Below the pieces are notes generated by a model that worked only from the letters and a program-made list of their open reading frames with translations, was not told the DNA's origin and ran no database searches. From Rhodobacter capsulatus SB 1003 (GTDB taxonomy: Bacteria; Pseudomonadota; Alphaproteobacteria; Rhodobacterales; Rhodobacteraceae), in NCBI RefSeq assembly GCF_000021865.1, contig NC_014035.1, positions 1-32,000 on the forward strand: a stretch of DNA of 32,000 nt, read 5' to 3'. Numbering within the stretch: the stretch's first letter is position 1; every line of letters begins with the position of its first letter. Below, one piece after another: positions 20,288 through 29,051 of this stretch. Both the position numbers and the translations under genes were made by a program.

Positions 20288-20632
20288 TTACGCCGCCAGA
20301 TCATCCAAGCTCACGCCAAGCGCGTCGGCCAGAGCGCGCAATGTTGCGATCGAGCCCTGCTTTCGGCCGGTCTCGATCTCGGCCACGGTGACCCGATTCA
20401 CGCCCGATTTTTCCGCCAGCGCAGCTTGCGTCAGACCGCGCAGATCGCGGTAGACGCGCAAGGCGCTTTCGCCATTCAGAAGGCGGTTCGCATAGTCCGC
20501 CGGGATCAACTCGTCCTCTCCCGCCGCAAGCCGCGCCTTGGCGCGGTCATAGCTTTGCAGGTCGGCCAGATCCTCCGCGGCAGCAAGCAGGCGGTCATAT
20601 TCTTCGCGCGGGATCGTCACCATCTCGGTCAT
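20288..20632 (-). CDS. XRE-family HTH antitoxin
   Basis: 114 aa with the HTH LRGLTQAALAEKSGVNRVTVAEIETG. The ATG overlaps the stop of the upstream RelE/ParE gene (ATGA). Confidence 0.85.
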   Translation of the reverse strand: MTEMVTIPREEYDRLLAAAEDLADLQSYDRAKARLAAGEDELIPADYANRLLNGESALRVYRDLRGLTQAALAEKSGVNRVTVAEIETGRKQGSIATLRALADALGVSLDDLAA

Positions 20633-20895
20633 CTCAAGCCCTTTCCGTCGCAGACGCCGCCGCGCGGCCCGATATCGAGAAGGACCAGAACATTGCCCTG
20701 ATCATCCATGATCACCCGCGGGTCCCCCACCCTGAGCCGAATACCCTCCCGGCCTTTCAAGGGCTTCACGTTATTGGCCTGCGCGCTTGGGTCTTGCGCG
20801 TAAGCTTCGATCTTGGCGCGGATCAGCGCAGCGGTCGTCGAGGGCATCCGCCGCAAGGCCTTGATCGCGGCTTTCGTGGTGCTGATCTGCTTCAT
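20629..20895 (-). CDS. RelE/ParE-family type II toxin
   Basis: Start taken at MKQISTTKAAIKALRRMPSTTAALIRAKIEAYAQDP. Core is IRLRVGDPRVIMDDQGNVLVLLDIGPRGG. 88 aa. Confidence 0.8.
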   Translation of the reverse strand: MKQISTTKAAIKALRRMPSTTAALIRAKIEAYAQDPSAQANNVKPLKGREGIRLRVGDPRVIMDDQGNVLVLLDIGPRGGVCDGKGLR

Positions 20896-20985
20896 GATGT
20901 AGCTTTGGGCGACATTTCGGCCAAAGTCAAGCATAATGTCGCCCTGCGCGACATGCCTGGCCGACAGGCGCCGGCCAGGCAAAGG

Positions 20986-21620
20986 TCATAGATCAATCCC
21001 TTCCGACAGCGTCAGCGCATCCTCCAGATCGACCCCCAGATATCGAACTGTGCTGTCCATCTTGGGTCGTGGCCCAGAAGCAGCTGCACGGCGCGAAGAT
21101 TTCCGGTCTTCTTGGTGATCTGCGCAACTTTCGTGCGCCGCATCGAATGCGTGCCATAGGCACTGGGCTCGAGCCCGATCGAAAGAACCCAGTCGCGCAG
21201 GGTCCGGGCATATTGGCGCGTCGAGAGGTGCGGGCTGGCGTGAACGCGGCTGGGCCAGAGATAGTCGTTGCCGATCATCTCGGGATCCTTGATCCACCGT
21301 TCAAGAGCCAGGCGCGTGATCTCGGTGATCTCGAAGCGGACGGGTTTTCGGGTTTTGCTCTGGGTCACCGAGGCACGTTCCTTGACGTGACCGGCGGCAT
21401 AGATGTCATTCACCCTGAGGCCGACCAGATCGCAGCCCCTGAGTTTGCTATCGACGGTCCTGTTGAACAGGGCGAGGTCGCGCCGATTGTCGGCCATTTC
21501 CAATCGCAAGCAGATGGACCAGACGTGTTTTGGCTGCAGCGGAAGCTTTTGGCCGACGATGCGGCCCTTGTTCCACGGCGCGTGGGTCGGGCGAAGAGCG
21601 GGCAAGGTTTCAATGGCCAT
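20986..21620 (-). pseudogene. Small tyrosine recombinase/integrase, frameshifted near the C-terminus
   Basis: MAIETLPALRPTHAPWNKG ... YGTHSMRRTKVAQITKKTGNLRAVQLLLGH is in one frame. The expected continuation KMDSTVRYLGVDLEDALTLSEGIDL, carrying the catalytic Tyr, is in another. The shift is at about 21062-21072. Confidence 0.8.
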
Positions 21621-21951
21621 GACGGTACTCCCCTCCACCACGCCCGCCACATCCTCGGCTCCGCCGATCCGGAAGTGTAGCACCGATCCATCCGTCGTTT
21701 CGATCGATCGAGTGGGCGGGGAGCGGCTTGTGAGGGCGCGGCATCGTCCCGCGGCAATCGGCGATAGCGGCCGTTCGCGAGGTGGCTCGGGGAACGGCGC
21801 ACTGCGCAGAGAACAGGCATGGCGCGCGGGACGGCACGCTTGGCGCGGCTGACGTGGGGCGCCTCAAAGCTGCCTTTCAACTGCGATCCGGCATTGGCCC
21901 GCACCTCAGTTCCGAACCTCGGCGAGGGTCTTTTCCACGGCCTTCCCGAGA

Positions 21952-22740: not shown

Positions 22741-22874
22741 TCGCGTTCTGACCTGACGCAGCCCGACCCCGGCCGAGGGAAGGATGACCTCGCGAGGCGG
22801 CCGATCTCGGAAACGGTTCAGACGACAGACCGATGCTGCTGTCGCCGAGGCAACCCGTTCCGGCAAGCGGCGAC

Positions 22875-23123
22875 ATGGAGAAACTGGCCCACGCGCTCGA
22901 CCGGTTGGGGGTCGCCTATTCCTGGCACAAGGTCGTGCCCTTCGTTGGCGATCTGATCCCCGAGCCTGAGGTGCGCAACCCGGGCTACGCGCCCGCCTAT
23001 GTCATGGATATCTGCAGCACCGAGACCGGCTTGAAACTTCTGGAAACGAATTGCATCAATGCCGCCGGGTTCTATGCGGCCGATGTGATGAAGCTGGCGG
23101 CGGCGATCGACGCGCTTGGCTGA
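22875..23123 (+). pseudogene. R2K-clade ATP-grasp (DUF4343-like) remnant with a large in-frame internal deletion
   Basis: An N-terminal piece (MEKLAHALDRLGVAYSWHKVVPFVGDLIPEPEV) is joined directly to the C-terminal piece (YAPAYVMDICSTETGLKLLETNCINAAGFYAADVMKLAAAIDAL). The ATP-grasp core between them is missing. Confidence 0.6.
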
Positions 23124-23142
23124 GCGGTCCGGGAGGGGCGAG

Positions 23143-23601
23143 ATGGGTTTTGTCTTGCGGCATCTGCTGTTGTTCTTCCTGCCGATCGTGCTGGCGGTTG
23201 GGCTTGATGTTGCCACCGCACCGTTGCGGCGGCAGCTTTATCAGCAATCGGGCGTGTTTCTGCGCGATCTGTTCTCCAACGACCCGGAGCGTGTTCGGAC
23301 AACGCTTGAGAGCCTAGGCCAGGGCGGCATCAGCCTGTCGGAGAGTCTTGACTGGGGCCTGCGCGCTGCTGTCGTGATCGGGTTTCTTGCCTTTTCACTG
23401 CTGATCCCGAAATCGGCCTCGTCACAAAGCGCCGTCAATTTTCTGACCACGCTTTGCGTCGGCTTCGGCTTTGCGAAACTCAATGGCGGCTTTGCCGGGC
23501 TGGACTGGGTTGAGCTGGGCCTTTGTCTGATCATCGGGCTGTGTCTCGCCGTTGTGGCGCTGACCCGAAGGCTGACATCTCTGGCCAGACCCGCCCGCTG
23601 A
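23143..23601 (+). CDS. Hypothetical membrane protein
   Basis: ATG 23143 follows GGGAGG. 152 aa with about 4 TM helices, lower GC by eye, no recognisable family. Confidence 0.6.
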   Translation: MGFVLRHLLLFFLPIVLAVGLDVATAPLRRQLYQQSGVFLRDLFSNDPERVRTTLESLGQGGISLSESLDWGLRAAVVIGFLAFSLLIPKSASSQSAVNFLTTLCVGFGFAKLNGGFAGLDWVELGLCLIIGLCLAVVALTRRLTSLARPAR

Positions 23602-23612
23602 GCGCGTGGATC

Positions 23613-24362
23613 TTACAACTGGATGTGGATGTGATCGTCGTGCCGGGCGGCGGCGCAGCCCTGAAAGCGGATCTTGGACGCGCCCGCCCCGAATTTCGCC
23701 GCCAGATGCGGTTCCAGGAAGATCTTTCCGATCCGGGGATCGCGCGACAAAAGCCGCAATGCAAGGCGCATCCGCTCGGGCTCGGGGGCGTAATCGGGCC
23801 AGAGCGGTTGCAGCCAGTCAAGATCCCAGCGCAGGGTCGGAAAGCGCGGCGGGCAGGTTCTGGGCCCCGGCTCGAACGCGAAATAGCCCAAGGGTGACCG
23901 GGTCTGCCCGGGCAGGTAGCGGCCGTGATCGGCGTAATAAAACGCCAGGTCGAGTTTGCGGCCATCCTTGTGCGACAGATGCGGCAGAAGCGGAAAGCCG
24001 TTCAAAAACGGGAAGTTGCCATCAAGGGCAAGGGTCACGGTGCCGGGATGGGTCCGGGCCATTTCGGTCGCCATGTCCGTGGCGGCGGCCTTGAGCTCGG
24101 GGGCGACGTAATTGCGGTTCGCAAGGCAAAAGACCCAGGAGCGCATCCCCAGCGGCCCCTCGCCATGGCAGGTGATCGGCACCCGCCTGAAGTGCGGTGC
24201 GATCATCAGCGCCCCCAGCCAAAGCGCGGCGTACAGCAGCGCAAAGGCAAGAAGCTTGCGCCGAAACAGACGGCTGATCAGCCACGCCAGCCCGCCCAAC
24301 TGCGTCAGCACCGTCAGCACGGCAGCCAGCGCCAGATGCCGGGCGGCGCGTCCGATCCTCAT
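23613..24362 (-). CDS. Membrane-anchored LAS-type zinc peptidase-like protein (MepA/M74-like motifs)
   Basis: Start taken at MRIGRAARH. Two N-terminal TM helices, then the HLSHKDGRKLDL motif and a terminal RHDDHIHIQL, resembling the H-x-SH..G..D and H.DH.H zinc motifs of murein endopeptidase MepA. The ATG overlaps the ligase stop (ATGA). Confidence 0.65.
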   Translation of the reverse strand: MRIGRAARHLALAAVLTVLTQLGGLAWLISRLFRRKLLAFALLYAALWLGALMIAPHFRRVPITCHGEGPLGMRSWVFCLANRNYVAPELKAAATDMATEMARTHPGTVTLALDGNFPFLNGFPLLPHLSHKDGRKLDLAFYYADHGRYLPGQTRSPLGYFAFEPGPRTCPPRFPTLRWDLDWLQPLWPDYAPEPERMRLALRLLSRDPRIGKIFLEPHLAAKFGAGASKIRFQGCAAARHDDHIHIQL

Positions 24363-24985
24363 GCGTCCCTCAGCCCGTTCGGCACCAGCGCCGCCTGCAT
24401 CCAATGCGTTTCGCTTTGCACATGGCCCGCGCGGACATATTTGCCCATCCGGCGCGGCATCTCGGCCTCCGAAAAGGCCGTTGCCACCCGCGCGACAAAG
24501 CCCTCCTGCCGCACCGGATCAAGCCCCGCCGCGATGGTTTCAAAAAGCCCCGGACGCCAAGGTCCGCGCCAGAGCACCGGCACCGGGGTGATGCCCAGCT
24601 CCTCGAACCGCATCAGGGTCAGATCCCAGGGTTGCACCTCGTCGCCCCGGATCCAGGCAAAGCCCAGAAACCACGCGGGCAGCGTGTCGTAGCCCACCGA
24701 ATGGCGGGCATAAAGGTTCTCGCCGACGATCCGCTCGCCCTCGGCCAGCTGCGGCGCGATACCCGCGGCAAAGGCCTTGAGCCAATCGCGCGAGGGGTGG
24801 TTGCGGCTGTCGGGGCTGCGCGCATGGCACCCGCCGCGGTGCAGCGTGGTGTTCTCGCCGTCCATCTTTTCGGTGATCACCAGATCGTCGCAGATCAGCC
24901 CCTCGAGCGAGTTCATGATCTTGTCGTCGCTGCTGGCGCCGGGCGAGATCGGCAAATGAAAGGTGCGGGGATATTTCTTCGTCAT
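24359..24985 (-). CDS. RNA ligase family protein (nucleotidyltransferase KxDG motif)
   Basis: Start taken at MTKKYPRTFHLPISPGASSDDK. Motif I is ITEKMDGEN, with further motifs GENLYARHS and EGFVARV. 208 aa. The remainder of the 497-aa track ORF is an artefact. Confidence 0.8.
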   Translation of the reverse strand: MTKKYPRTFHLPISPGASSDDKIMNSLEGLICDDLVITEKMDGENTTLHRGGCHARSPDSRNHPSRDWLKAFAAGIAPQLAEGERIVGENLYARHSVGYDTLPAWFLGFAWIRGDEVQPWDLTLMRFEELGITPVPVLWRGPWRPGLFETIAAGLDPVRQEGFVARVATAFSEAEMPRRMGKYVRAGHVQSETHWMQAALVPNGLRDA

Positions 24986-25026
24986 GCGGCCAGAGTATCC
25001 GGATGCCACGAGGGCGGAAAGAGGCC

Positions 25027-25839
25027 TCAGAACGGCGCGAGCGTGGCAAGGAAACTCGGTTCGGGCGTGCATTCGCTTCCCGCGCGCTCGGTCAGCCAGT
25101 CGGGATGGGGCAGCGGGGTGAACCCCATCGCGCCAAAGGACCAGTTCCAGACCGACCAATCGGCATCGGCCTCGACGATCAGCACGGCGTGCAGATACCA
25201 GTGCGAGGTGCTCTTGAAGCCGGTCCGGGTGGTGTAAAGCGACAGGCCGCGCAGCTCGGCCCAGCTGTCGATGGGATGAGTATCCCCGTGGCGCGCGATG
25301 CAATAGGGATGGCCCGCCGCAATTTTCAGCGCCGAAACCGCGGCGGCAGGGACCGTCGCGAGCGACCAAAGGGCCAAGAGCGTCGGCAAGGCCATCAACA
25401 GGGCCGCGAGTTCGCCCGCCTCGGTGGCGCGGCCCAGCATCTGCAGGCCACCCACGACGGCAAGGGTCAGCATCAGCCCCTCGAGGAAGGCAAGGGCCGA
25501 TCCGCCATCCATCATCGCGGCAAGAGTGAGCAAGACCCCCAGCACCGCGCAGCAGACCGTCAATGGCACGAGCACGAGGCCCGGCAGTCGCAGCCGCGCG
25601 TAACGCGCCAGAAGCGCAGAGACCAGCGGCAGGACGGGCGCGGCGACGATCGCGGCCACAGCCGCGGCGATGTCTCCCGGGACGCGCGGTCTGTGCAGCA
25701 AAGACAGCGGCGCCAGATCGGCATAGCCCGCGGCGATCAGCCCCGCCATGGCAAGGGGGATCCATCCCGTTCGGTGCTGCGCGGGAGCGGTCACAGCACC
25801 CGCCGCCCGGAAACAAGCGTGGCGTCGCCCGGGGTCCAA
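25027..25839 (-). CDS. Hypothetical membrane protein with a C-terminal Cys/His/Trp-rich domain
   Basis: 270 aa (the start may be the internal MAGLIAAGY at 25749). About 6 hydrophobic helices precede GHPYCIARHGDTHPIDSW ... HWYLHAVLIVEADADWSVWNW. No family recognised. Confidence 0.55.
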   Translation of the reverse strand: MDPGRRHACFRAAGAVTAPAQHRTGWIPLAMAGLIAAGYADLAPLSLLHRPRVPGDIAAAVAAIVAAPVLPLVSALLARYARLRLPGLVLVPLTVCCAVLGVLLTLAAMMDGGSALAFLEGLMLTLAVVGGLQMLGRATEAGELAALLMALPTLLALWSLATVPAAAVSALKIAAGHPYCIARHGDTHPIDSWAELRGLSLYTTRTGFKSTSHWYLHAVLIVEADADWSVWNWSFGAMGFTPLPHPDWLTERAGSECTPEPSFLATLAPF

Positions 25840-26162
25840 AGATCAAAGGCAAGCATCGGGGAAAGGGTGAAAATCGGCCAATCCGGCACGAAGCGGGGCG
25901 TGGCGCCCCCGGCGGCGATGAGGCGGCGGATGCGTCCGCCGCACCAGAGCCCGACCGCCCCGGGAAGGATGAGACGGATCGGCTGCTTGAACACCACGAA
26001 GGCCGCCATCGCCGGGAAGATCAGGAAGAGATGCGGGATCAGGCGCCGGAGATCCGCTTCGGGCAGCTTGCCAAAAGGCCGGTAAAGGGGCGGAAATCCG
26101 CCCAGCAGCTGGAGGGAGAGGATCAGGACCATCATCCCGAACATCAGGGCCGTTCCGAACAT
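25791..26162 (-). CDS. Small hypothetical membrane protein
   Basis: Start taken at MFGTALMFGMMVLILSLQLL (ATG 26160-26162). 123 aa, 2-3 TM helices. First gene of the minus-strand operon. Confidence 0.5.
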   Translation of the reverse strand: MFGTALMFGMMVLILSLQLLGGFPPLYRPFGKLPEADLRRLIPHLFLIFPAMAAFVVFKQPIRLILPGAVGLWCGGRIRRLIAAGGATPRFVPDWPIFTLSPMLAFDLWTPGDATLVSGRRVL

Positions 26163-27840: not shown

Positions 27841-28629
27841 TCATCGCGCCGCAGAGGGTGCCTCTACCTCCGGCTTGCGGGCAAGCAGGATGAAACGCGT
27901 GTATACCCTCGTCCTCAGGCGGTTGCGCAGGCCATTGGAGCGGCGTTGAGCCTTTGCGATCGGCTCATGCGGGATCTGCATCAGATCGACGAACCCCGCC
28001 GAACGCAGCATCGGCTCAAGCGCCTCAAGCGTCAGCCCGGCGCCAAAGGGCAGACGGCGCATGATCCCGGCGTGCCGATCGCCAAGTGCGCCGTGGTAGG
28101 TCGGATCGGGCGACAGCCGCTCCCACAGCGCCAGGAGCCCGGCCGCCCAATACCCGCGCGGATCGGGTTGCGCCCAGTTGCCGTCGTAGATCAGCAACCG
28201 CCCGCCCGGGCGCAAAACGCGAAACCAGTCCGCAAAAGCCTCCGCCGGGCGCGTCAGTGTCCAGACGAGGTGACGGCACAGGATCGCATCCTGGCTTTGC
28301 GCAGGTTCCATCGTGGCGTGAGCATCGGCGAGACGGAACCGCAACCGCGGTTTGCCCGCGTGCTTGGCCCGTGCGACGGCGAGCATCGGCTCGCAGAAGT
28401 CGAGCGCGGTGACCTCGTGGCCAAGATCGTGCAAAAGCCGCGTCACCTCGCCCGTGCCGCAGGCAAGCTCCAGCACCCGTTGCGGCGCGTCGCCAAGCCG
28501 GTGCATCGGGACAGCCCAGGCCTCGGCCTCGGCGCCGGGGGCGATCCGGTGGCCGAAAGCCAGGTCGAAGGTCGCGGCGCGCAGCCCCCAATAGGCGCGG
28601 ATCTCCTCGGACAGATCAAAGTTGCTCAT
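27841..28629 (-). CDS. Class I SAM-dependent methyltransferase
   Basis: Start taken at MSNFDLSEEIRAYW (ATG 28627-28629, overlapping the pseudoazurin stop as ATGA). Motif I VLELACGTG, post-I ALDFCEPML, and VLRPGGRLLI. Confidence 0.85.
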   Translation of the reverse strand: MSNFDLSEEIRAYWGLRAATFDLAFGHRIAPGAEAEAWAVPMHRLGDAPQRVLELACGTGEVTRLLHDLGHEVTALDFCEPMLAVARAKHAGKPRLRFRLADAHATMEPAQSQDAILCRHLVWTLTRPAEAFADWFRVLRPGGRLLIYDGNWAQPDPRGYWAAGLLALWERLSPDPTYHGALGDRHAGIMRRLPFGAGLTLEALEPMLRSAGFVDLMQIPHEPIAKAQRRSNGLRNRLRTRVYTRFILLARKPEVEAPSAAR

Positions 28630-29051
28630 TGCGGATGCGTCGCGAGGATCGCCTCGAAACGGCTGCGCGCCCGCGCGGGCAGATCGGCGGGCAGCACCGG
28701 CGCGGGGGCGTCGCCCACCTTGATCAGCATGACCATGCCCATGGCGAAATGCGGGCTGCATCGGATGCCATAGCTTCCGGGAACGGTCAGGGTGACGCTG
28801 AAGGTTTCGTTGATCTTCGATTTGAACGGGATGGCGCCTTCGGGGATCATCCCCTCGATCGTGGCGGCGTTGTGACCGGGCTGGGCCGGAAGAAATCGCA
28901 CCGTATCGCCCGGGGCAATGTGCAGGAAGGCGGGCTCATAGGCCATCGCCCCGCTCTCGGCGCGGTTGTACATCTTCACGTCATGTGTTTCGGCCAGCAG
29001 CGGGGCGGCGAACAGAAGCAGCGCAACGGCCGGGATGGCGGCAAGTTTCAT
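28626..29051 (-). CDS. Pseudoazurin (type 1 blue copper protein)
   Basis: 141 aa with signal peptide MKLAAIPAVALLLFAAPLLA. The mature protein ETHDVKMYNRAESGAMAYEPAF has copper ligands in the GHN and CSPHFAMGM motifs. The ATG lies 3 nt after the ABC ATPase stop. Confidence 0.9.
   Translation of the reverse strand: MKLAAIPAVALLLFAAPLLAETHDVKMYNRAESGAMAYEPAFLHIAPGDTVRFLPAQPGHNAATIEGMIPEGAIPFKSKINETFSVTLTVPGSYGIRCSPHFAMGMVMLIKVGDAPAPVLPADLPARARSRFEAILATHPQ

Follow-up and report, generated by a model that had tools for sequence, protein, structure and literature searches.

Do four closely packed genes of Rhodobacter capsulatus SB 1003, one encoding an RNA ligase and another a cell-wall-type peptidase, form a single functional system? 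The genes occupy positions 23613–26162 of the window, by which we mean the whole 32 000-nt stretch of DNA analyzed, and follow one another on the same strand in the order g1, g2, RNA ligase and g4 (Table 1). The first-pass annotation had described them as minus-strand genes at most 41 nt apart or overlapping, and had proposed an RNA-repair, counter-toxin or abortive-infection module. The coordinates and spacing were confirmed: 41 nt separates both g1 from g2 (counted from the ATG start of g2) and g2 from the ligase, and the reported sharing of ATGA by the ligase stop and the peptidase start was also seen, with GAGGGA just 5′ of the g4 start. A TTG start at 25839 would extend g2 to 270 aa (25027–25839); public annotations instead begin g2 at the ATG of position 25749.

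Table 1. Positions of the genes and associated features in the window
Feature	Position	Strand	Description
g1	25791..26162	-	123-aa small membrane protein with 2–3 transmembrane segments
g2	25027..25749	-	240-aa polytopic membrane protein, ATG start
Spacer	24986..25026	-	41 nt upstream of the ligase, largely conserved in every cassette carrier (six-locus alignment)
RNA ligase	24359..24985	-	208 aa, nucleotidyltransferase domain alone, contains ITEKMDGEN
ATGA overlap	24359..24362	-	4 nt shared by ligase stop and g4 start
g4	23613..24362	-	249-aa MepA-like (M74/LAS) zinc peptidase, predicted to be anchored in the inner membrane
Convergent gene	23116..23601	+	membrane protein of 152/161 aa, outside the operon, accompanies the cassette in several strains

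The GC3 of all four genes was 0.81–0.83, the same as that of local coding sequence, and their dN/dS against orthologues was 0.13–0.51, so that these are four real genes and not chance open reading frames of high-GC DNA. The ligase and g4 were both under purifying selection, with dN/dS of 0.13–0.22. The spacer upstream of the ligase may contain its ribosome-binding site or a promoter, as judged from conservation; scanning for promoter consensus sequences gave no sigma-70-like site. Terminator-like matches were set aside because all of them lay inside coding sequence. Elsewhere in the window, a methyltransferase gene and a pseudoazurin-like gene also overlap by 4 nt, and the ATGA overlap is therefore weak evidence for a system.

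The assignment of the 208-aa product to the RNA ligase family held. It matched PF09414 with E = 1.8e-24 (87.2 bits against a cut-off of 27, profile positions 2–171 of 171), and all nucleotidyltransferase motifs were conserved: K40 (EKMDGEN), E89 (GENL), E161-G162 (EGFVAR), K182 (GKYVR) and FLGFAWI were invariant or nearly so among 18 homologues. The motif numbering used here (I, III, IIIa, IV and V) follows that of the superfamily, and we take K40 to be the lysine nucleophile of motif I. An AF2 model of modest confidence (pLDDT 65) matched T4 Rnl2 (2hvr, 1s68), NgrRnl (6vtf) and archaeal Rnl3 (5d1o, 2vug) with a Foldseek probability of 1.0 and E values of 2e-4 to 1e-3, while the profile built from the ligase alignment, run against PDB sequences, returned only noise, no solved structure being detectable by sequence. 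Like the T4 Rnl2-type ligases, including NgrRnl/DraRnl (‘Rnl5’) and the archaeal ‘Rnl3’, the window ligase has the KxDGxN lysine, the Glu, Gly and Lys positions and the predicted fold, but it lacks the C-terminal domain of Rnl2, the N-terminal domain of Rnl5 and the dimerization domain of Rnl3. It ends ∼20 residues past motif V, thus leaving no C-terminal domain of the canonical T4 Rnl2 kind, and a hydropathy scan found no transmembrane segment. By profile, motifs and predicted fold, it is a single-domain ATP-dependent RNA ligase.

The closest relatives of the ligase form an uncharacterized subfamily of ∼205 aa whose members occur solo, both in alphaproteobacteria and among jumbo phages (for example XacN1, CcrSC and RsoM2USA). 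Two PHROG families were matched, phrog_34045 (E = 1e-54) and phrog_24030, annotated ‘RNA ligase’ (E = 6e-49), and 189 relatives were found on viral contigs. Searches of the literature on PF09414, on RNA ligases with gene neighborhoods and on pRCB133 gave no account of this small subfamily.

The g4 protein contains HLSHKDGRKLDL, ends in RHDDHIHIQL and agrees with the LAS zinc-ligand pattern of H-x(3-6)-D and H-x-H. Among 24 homologues, H128/H131...D138 (H131-x6-D138), H244-I-H246 and four cysteines were invariant. The protein itself had no PF03411 match at E ≤ 0.1 and reached no Pfam threshold; 17 of the 24 homologues matched PF03411 at E ≤ 1 (best 2.9e-6), and the precomputed PF03411 call was carried by only some database members of the family. 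The sole PDB sequence match was to MepA (1tzp, E = 0.29), with the HxSHxxGxxxD motif aligned and the first zinc motif of g4 placed against GHASHQTGLDVD of MepA. The AF2 model of g4 (pLDDT 81, pTM 0.79) had the Escherichia coli penicillin-insensitive murein DD-endopeptidase MepA (M74; 1u10/1tzp) as its best and only significant structural match, extending over ∼206 residues (Foldseek E = 3e-6 (3.3e-6), probability 1.0, 208 columns), followed by Hedgehog N-domains. The two proteins have in common the H-x-S-H-x-x-G-x-x-x-D motif, the C-terminal H-x-H and conserved cysteines, at a sequence identity of 16–17% and a TM-score of about 0.45. The earlier call of a LAS peptidase thus stood as far as the invariant zinc motifs and the MepA fold match carry it, but not at the level of the Pfam profile, as the window protein falls below the PF03411 threshold.

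MepA is a soluble periplasmic enzyme, whereas g4 appears to be anchored by two N-terminal transmembrane helices, which the first-pass annotation had already noticed and which our hydropathy scan placed at residues 11–29 and 37–55. These helices carry an invariant LTxLTQxGGxAW motif. The most positively charged loop of the protein is the one between them, the predicted cytoplasmic loop being of ∼7 residues, and from hydropathy, charge distribution and the conserved cysteines the catalytic domain is predicted to face the periplasm. By fold and motif, we assign g4 as a membrane-anchored MepA-like LAS peptidase.

The two remaining genes are rare and lineage-restricted. The g1 product, with its two to three transmembrane segments found by hydropathy, had no match in Pfam, NCBIfam, PADLOC or PHROG and only 18 representatives among 1.84 billion proteins; its dN/dS was 0.24–0.41 and its GC3 0.82, and among the related loci it occurred only in L009, L010 and L011. 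In g2 (dN/dS 0.38–0.51), four to five transmembrane segments are followed by a soluble His/Trp-rich tail of ∼100 aa, and only six clusters were found among 5.8 billion proteins. The one distant g2 relative, in Roseibium, had neither the ligase nor g4 nearby. None of the four proteins of the locus matched NCBIfam.

We then surveyed the neighborhoods of both enzyme families. The peptidase adjoined the ligase in 5 of 80 genomic ligase loci (L007, L008, L009, L010 and L072), all from Rhodobacter or Sinirhodobacter and all with a ligase identity of at least 84%, and a sixth locus, L011 of strain SP36, held only a peptidase remnant. An 81%-identical ligase was found solo, and none of the other 74 ligase loci (62–77% identity) had g4, g2 or g1, as searched by tblastn within 8 kb and by profile within 5 kb. 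Conversely, the ligase lay beside the peptidase in 0 of 83 peptidase loci, of which 60 hold at least 700 nt upstream, and three further peptidase loci (63–67% identity) looked up singly were also without it. In 80 viral ligase loci examined, g4, g1 and g2 were never nearby. A conserved ligase partner was sought across lineages and no gene family was found to fill that place. Outside the Rhodobacter/Sinirhodobacter clade, the ligase and g4 families each stood alone in the loci surveyed, and the adjacency was limited to this one clade and did not recur in phylogenetically independent genomes. The literature searches likewise gave no account of the pairing. The first-pass annotation had named missing co-occurrence elsewhere and missing ligase motifs as findings that would count against its proposal; the first of these was largely borne out, as no co-occurrence was found outside the narrow clade, and the ligase motifs were all present.

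Within the clade, the genes were lost separately. R. capsulatus SP36 has kept the ligase while its g4 is reduced to MSLGRAALHDDHIHIQL, and R. aestuarii has kept g4 together with a ligase that lacks codons 1–37, including motif I. All four genes were intact in only two of eight contexts, the window type and L009, and five (R. maris, R. viridis, R. capsulatus SP18 and SP36, and GCA_000506525.2) had a deleted or truncated g2, with 3′ remnants persisting in most of them. The ligase–g4 pair with its ATGA was intact in six of the eight contexts despite changing flanks, and the overlap was kept in L007, L008, L009, L010, L072 and L257. The cassette flanks differed between genomes while dS to other species was only 0.2–0.6, which suggests that the cassette arose once and was then transferred. 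The convergent gene on the opposite strand, for which no family match was found, adjoined g4 in L010, L011, L072, L257 and L258. As the pairing is confined to a few close relatives and each partner has been lost independently, these patterns argue for a local gene juxtaposition and not for a new RNA-repair or defense system.

The island context described by the first-pass annotation was recovered, in that an integrase fragment (PF00589) and a 96-aa R2K_3 fragment lie near the four genes; the putative toxin-antitoxin pair consists of an HTH_3 gene and, ahead of it, a gene of 101 aa for which no family was matched. The proposed role in RNA repair, toxin counteraction or abortive infection fared worse, since its distribution is contrary and no known defense model was matched: PADLOC gave no match for the four genes or four neighbors at E ≤ 0.01. 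RNA-repair modules pair the ligase with end-healing enzymes, namely a kinase, phosphatase, cyclase or methyltransferase (PMC7824862). According to precomputed Pfam annotation, no polynucleotide kinase, phosphatase or cyclase is encoded within ∼10 kb to either side of the locus, and Rhizobium and some viral loci were the only places where metallophosphoesterases adjoined the ligase. The locus resembles T4 Pnkp with Rnl1/Rnl2, Pnkp/Hen1 and RtcAB in holding an RNA ligase, here too in a mobile, conflict-type neighborhood, but differs from them in that the partner is a cell-wall peptidase and the partnership is not conserved. A megablast search of the region against PLSDB plasmids gave no match.

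We consider it probable that a single juxtaposition event created a small cassette that was passed between Rhodobacter species, with the two enzymes acting independently in different compartments. The region would then be a strain-variable accessory islet of R. capsulatus in which two unrelated conserved enzymes share one transcription unit. The ligase would be adenylylated at Lys40 in the cytoplasm and seal RNA breaks with 3′-OH and 5′-phosphate ends, and g4, held in the inner membrane by its N-terminal helical hairpin, would cleave peptidoglycan cross-links with a catalytic domain presumably in the periplasm. The two genes would have been joined once in the ancestor of the cassette, which later moved between Rhodobacter and Sinirhodobacter genomes, and would be co-expressed without depending on each other; g1 and g2 would be lineage-restricted membrane proteins dispensable for the ligase–peptidase pair. 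As a counterpoint, the intact pair in six of the eight contexts and its dN/dS of 0.13–0.22 would also be consistent with a two-gene unit under selection.

Such a unit, consisting of the ligase and g4 without g1 and g2, might be a functional cassette mobile among Rhodobacter species that links cytoplasmic RNA repair to peptidoglycan remodeling, for instance in response to phage or bacteriocin attack damaging both RNA and the envelope. Besides its dN/dS, the pair has the ATGA overlap and the GAGGGA ribosome-binding site conserved in all carriers, the DNA block common between species is essentially the ligase and g4 with unrelated flanks, and the islands concerned hold integrases and toxin-antitoxin-like genes. 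We nevertheless regard this reading as unlikely, because the pairing has a single evolutionary origin and was absent from the other 74, 86 and 80 loci, either gene was lost while the other was retained, the enzymes are predicted to lie in different compartments with only the short g4 loop on the cytoplasmic side, and neither an end-healing enzyme nearby nor a PADLOC match was found. That the translationally coupled pair would be a selected, horizontally mobile Rhodobacter module functionally tying the joining of RNA ends in the cytoplasm to the cleavage of peptidoglycan in the periplasm, for example against phages or bacteriocins, seems to us distinctly unlikely. To our knowledge, no described system ties these two activities together; if functional, such coupling of RNA repair to cell-wall remodeling would be without precedent, but the evidence points the other way.

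An origin from a phage or another integrative element, with the ligase as a phage anti-defense RNA-repair gene and g4 as a phage-type lysis or wall-penetration peptidase, would agree with the abundance of the ligase family on viral contigs and in jumbo phages, its two PHROG matches, the treatment of such ligases as phage tRNA-repair enzymes in comparative work (PMC7824862) and the integrase directly adjoining the cassette in L257. It is quite improbable, however, given that the bacterial ligases are 62–92% identical to one another and only 41–51% to viral ones, that no phage structural genes lie nearby, and that g4 is elsewhere a solitary gene on chromosomes or large contigs, with housekeeping genes around it. 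The g4 family had only one match in 2.9 million viral contigs and none in PHROG, and g4 as a phage lysis enzyme was rejected because of this near absence. The least credible reading joins all four genes into a single system for RNA repair, toxin counteraction or abortive infection, with the membrane proteins as signal sensors or transducers. The common strand, the spacers of at most 41 nt and the island context had suggested it, and an ancestral order of g2-ligase-g4 is suggested by the 3′ end of g2 that survives 5′ of the ligase in several genomes. Yet the losses of g2 number at least four or five and differ in their breakpoints, several carriers have no g1, the complete set is the exception among the contexts, both membrane proteins are almost without relatives anywhere, the Roseibium relative of g2 stands apart from either enzyme and no defense model was matched; a four-gene system is thus largely refuted by distribution.

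The main value of the single-juxtaposition explanation is negative, in that a system cannot be inferred from close gene spacing and an ATGA overlap within an island alone. The analysis also brought out two families as by-products. One is a well-populated, uncharacterized family of membrane-anchored MepA-like peptidases in Rhodobacterales and relatives, with about 3,700 clusters, most of them below Pfam thresholds. The other is the highly conserved family of ∼205-aa single-domain RNA ligases, common to alphaproteobacteria and jumbo phages and always stand-alone.

The window (GC ∼67%) belongs to a replicon that we take to be plasmid pRCB133 of strain SB1003. Plasmid pRCB133 is named in PMC3924369. 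The four minus-strand genes reported at 23613-26162 by the first-pass annotation were confirmed: g1 and g2 (membrane proteins), the RNA ligase and g4 (the peptidase) are separated by two spacers of 41 nt each (g1-g2 and g2-ligase) and by an ATGA in which the ligase TGA overlaps the g4 ATG, with GAGGGA upstream. Because third-position GC was 0.81–0.83 and dN/dS 0.13–0.51 over all four, we regard the genes as genuine. Hydropathy gave 2–3 transmembrane (TM) helices for g1, in line with its earlier description, 4–5 for g2, two for g4 and none for the ligase. An alternative TTG start at 25839 would extend g2 to 270 aa. Exact copies of the ligase protein are present on Rhodobacter capsulatus assemblies.

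Coordinates of the four genes, their surroundings and related features at other loci (L-numbers, loci fetched around relatives)
Feature	Sequence	Position	Strand	Remark
g1	window	25791-26162	minus	123 aa
g2	window	25027-25749	minus	240 aa from ATG of public gene calls
RNA ligase	window	24359-24985	minus	208 aa
g4	window	23613-24362	minus	249 aa
Polar TM motif of g4	window	24275-24335		g4 residues about 10-29; alignment A2 of the g4 family
Phage-type integrase	window	20986-21683		223-aa and 103-aa ORFs; PF00589, E=1.8e-12
101-aa gene, then HTH_3 gene	window	about 20288-20934		
R2K ATP-grasp fragment	window	22833-23123		96 aa
Membrane-protein gene	window	23116-23601		152/161 aa
SAM-methyltransferase gene	window	27841-28629	minus	
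Pseudoazurin-like gene	window	28626-29051	minus	
g4 remnant, SP36	L011	8624-8677		17 codons
Truncated ligase, R. aestuarii	L072	8001-8516		
R2K ATP-grasp gene, R. aestuarii	L072	9749-10558		269 aa; PF14243, E=2e-16
PF00149 gene beside Rhizobium ligase	L027	7125-7772		example from loci L020-L038
PF00149 gene beside viral ligase	L216	2700-3491		example

The RNA-ligase call proved sound. The protein matches PF09414 (E=1.8e-24), and K40 (EKMDGEN), E89, E161/G162 and K182, presumably nucleotidyltransferase motifs I, III, IV and V of the superfamily, are invariant across 18 homologues. No solved structure was detectable by sequence search; T4 Rnl2, Naegleria Rnl and archaeal Rnl3 were all found as matches, at probability 1.0, to the predicted structure, which is of modest confidence (pLDDT 65). 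At 208 aa, the ligase consists of the catalytic domain alone, and public annotation already names it ‘RNA ligase family protein’. The family is very strongly conserved throughout Rhodobacterales and Rhizobiales (62–92% identity), matches two PHROG families, has relatives on 189 viral contigs (41–51% identity) and occurs in jumbo phages such as XacN1, CcrSC and RsoM2USA. Such phage ligases are treated as tRNA-repair enzymes working with kinases and phosphatases (PMC7824862).

The single-domain form of ∼205 aa is found widely on viral contigs (L173-L252), some of them of jumbo-phage size, and in phage records AP018399.1, NC_048048.2 and MG752970.1; there, as in alphaproteobacteria, it is always solo. 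Identity between Rhodobacterales and Rhizobiales ligases (62–77%) is unusually high given the patchy distribution. Some genomes carry two copies, namely Paracoccus caeni (L016 and L085) and R. maris (L007 and L022), the latter with a cassette-type copy beside the peptidase (92% identity) and an ordinary solo copy (74%). A calcineurin-like metallophosphoesterase gene (PF00149) adjoins the ligase in 8 Rhizobium and 10 viral loci and could be an RNA end-healing partner of those ligases; the window has no PF00149 metallophosphoesterase gene.

The description of g4 as a membrane-anchored LAS-type peptidase (the MepA-type zinc class) was also upheld by two TM helices, zinc-ligand motifs and a MepA fold match. 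Profile support, by which both enzymes were to be checked, was obtained for the ligase, whereas g4 itself matched nothing in Pfam. Its family (3734 clusters at E<=0.001) invariantly keeps H128/H131-x6-D138, H244-x-H246 and four cysteines, and 17 of 24 members weakly matched Peptidase_M74, the MepA family. The sole PDB sequence match of g4 was MepA, in an alignment spanning the first zinc motif, and its good model (pLDDT 81) matched MepA over ∼206 residues (E=3e-6), followed by Hedgehog LAS domains. Together these identify g4, on sequence and model, as a divergent MepA-like LAS peptidase. The positive charge of the loop between its helices, together with the conserved cysteines, leads us to infer a periplasmic catalytic domain. 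Existing catalogues list M74 domains for Rhodobacter, Paracoccus and Sulfitobacter (PMC6403190). The first TM helix of the family bears an invariant polar motif, L-T-x-L-T-Q-x-G-G-x-A-W, at which the helix is interrupted in the g4 model; a passive membrane anchor would not usually look like this, and a role inside the membrane is hinted at.

Neither g1 nor g2 matched a family in Pfam, NCBIfam, PADLOC or PHROG, and their relatives were rare (18 representatives among 1.84 billion proteins for g1, 6 clusters among 5.8 billion for g2). The only distant g2 relative, in Roseibium sp. (L172, 117-4789; 35% identity), has Amidase_2 and GH19-like genes less than 3 kb away on the opposite strand and, 3 kb off, a second 262-aa gene that equals it in length.

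For the neighbourhood survey called for at first pass, which we regard as decisive for whether the genes belong together, we searched 80 genomic ligase loci with the g1, g2 and g4 proteins and a g4 profile. The peptidase adjoined the ligase only in R. maris, R. viridis, Sinirhodobacter huangdaonensis, R. capsulatus SP18 and R. aestuarii, all with ligase identity of at least 84%, and was present as a remnant only in R. capsulatus SP36. The four-gene co-occurrence was not borne out elsewhere: g1, g2 and g4 were absent from the remaining 74 loci (including Rhizobium, Mesorhizobium, Devosia, Paracoccus, Ruegeria and Sulfitobacter) and from 80 viral ligase loci, and none of 83 peptidase loci, 60 with at least 700 nt of upstream sequence, contained the ligase, g1 or g2. 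Three further peptidase loci (63–67% identity to g4) had no ligase, and flanking-ORF clustering found no gene kept beside the ligase across lineages. A metagenomic ligase of 81% identity was solo among housekeeping genes, and in Paracoccus caeni members of both families share one 537-kb contig but are separated by more than 8 kb.

Between species, the common DNA is essentially the ligase–g4 cassette (window 25065-23548) with unrelated flanks; by eye from translations, the R. maris pair sits between Rrf2-like regulator and moaA-like radical-SAM genes, and another R. capsulatus strain has an integrase immediately beside the pair. Synonymous sites have diverged by only 0.2–0.6 from those of other species, which fits recent transfer of one cassette rather than assembly on separate occasions. 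Individual parts have been lost independently of each other. g2 is precisely deleted in SP18, reduced to a ∼60-nt remnant in R. maris and SP36, and left as a 3′ fragment of 73–79 codons in R. viridis and GCA_000506525.2. In SP36, g4 has collapsed in frame to MSLGRAALHDDHIHIQL downstream of an intact ligase, apparently by deletion between two short AARH-coding repeats near its start and end. The R. aestuarii ligase lacks codons 1–37, motif I lysine included, and ahead of it stands unrelated sequence that contains a stop codon; the g4 downstream is intact. Ligase and g4 are both intact in six of eight contexts.

The locus is probably a lineage-specific juxtaposition: the two enzymes would have come to lie together in a decaying accessory islet of one lineage, each doing its own family's job independently. 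The single origin, the cases in which one gene was lost and its neighbour kept, in both directions, and the stand-alone occurrence of both everywhere else argue against a mechanistic partnership, as does their placement in different compartments, with a g4 cytoplasmic loop of ∼7 residues. The main rival, a real two-gene module of ligase and g4, keeps some weight since several changes of context have left both the pair and its overlap in place under purifying selection, but it is unlikely in view of the same three observations, and neither an end-healing enzyme near the ligase nor a match to a known defense model was found. The ATGA, from which translational coupling had been proposed, is not diagnostic, because the pseudoazurin-like and methyltransferase genes likewise overlap by 4 nt (28626-28629) and, where bacterial genomes are compact, no other kind of overlap is as frequent. 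That all four genes form one system, suggested as an RNA-repair, counter-toxin or abortive-infection module, is very improbable: they are intact together in only two of eight contexts and do not co-occur at the surveyed loci outside Rhodobacter/Sinirhodobacter. Both enzymes are of known kinds; we found no description of their pairing in the searched literature, and this undescribed pairing does not behave like a system. Genes joined by 4-nt overlaps in this window carry family annotations of unrelated function.

The island setting was confirmed: the integrase split over two frames, the 101-aa and HTH_3 genes and the R2K fragment point to a decayed mobile island. The 152/161-aa membrane-protein gene, without a family match, is convergent on g4, ending 11 nt from its stop; it lies downstream of the R2K gene in the same orientation and accompanies the cassette in several strains. 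At the R. aestuarii locus, the R2K ATP-grasp gene is intact.
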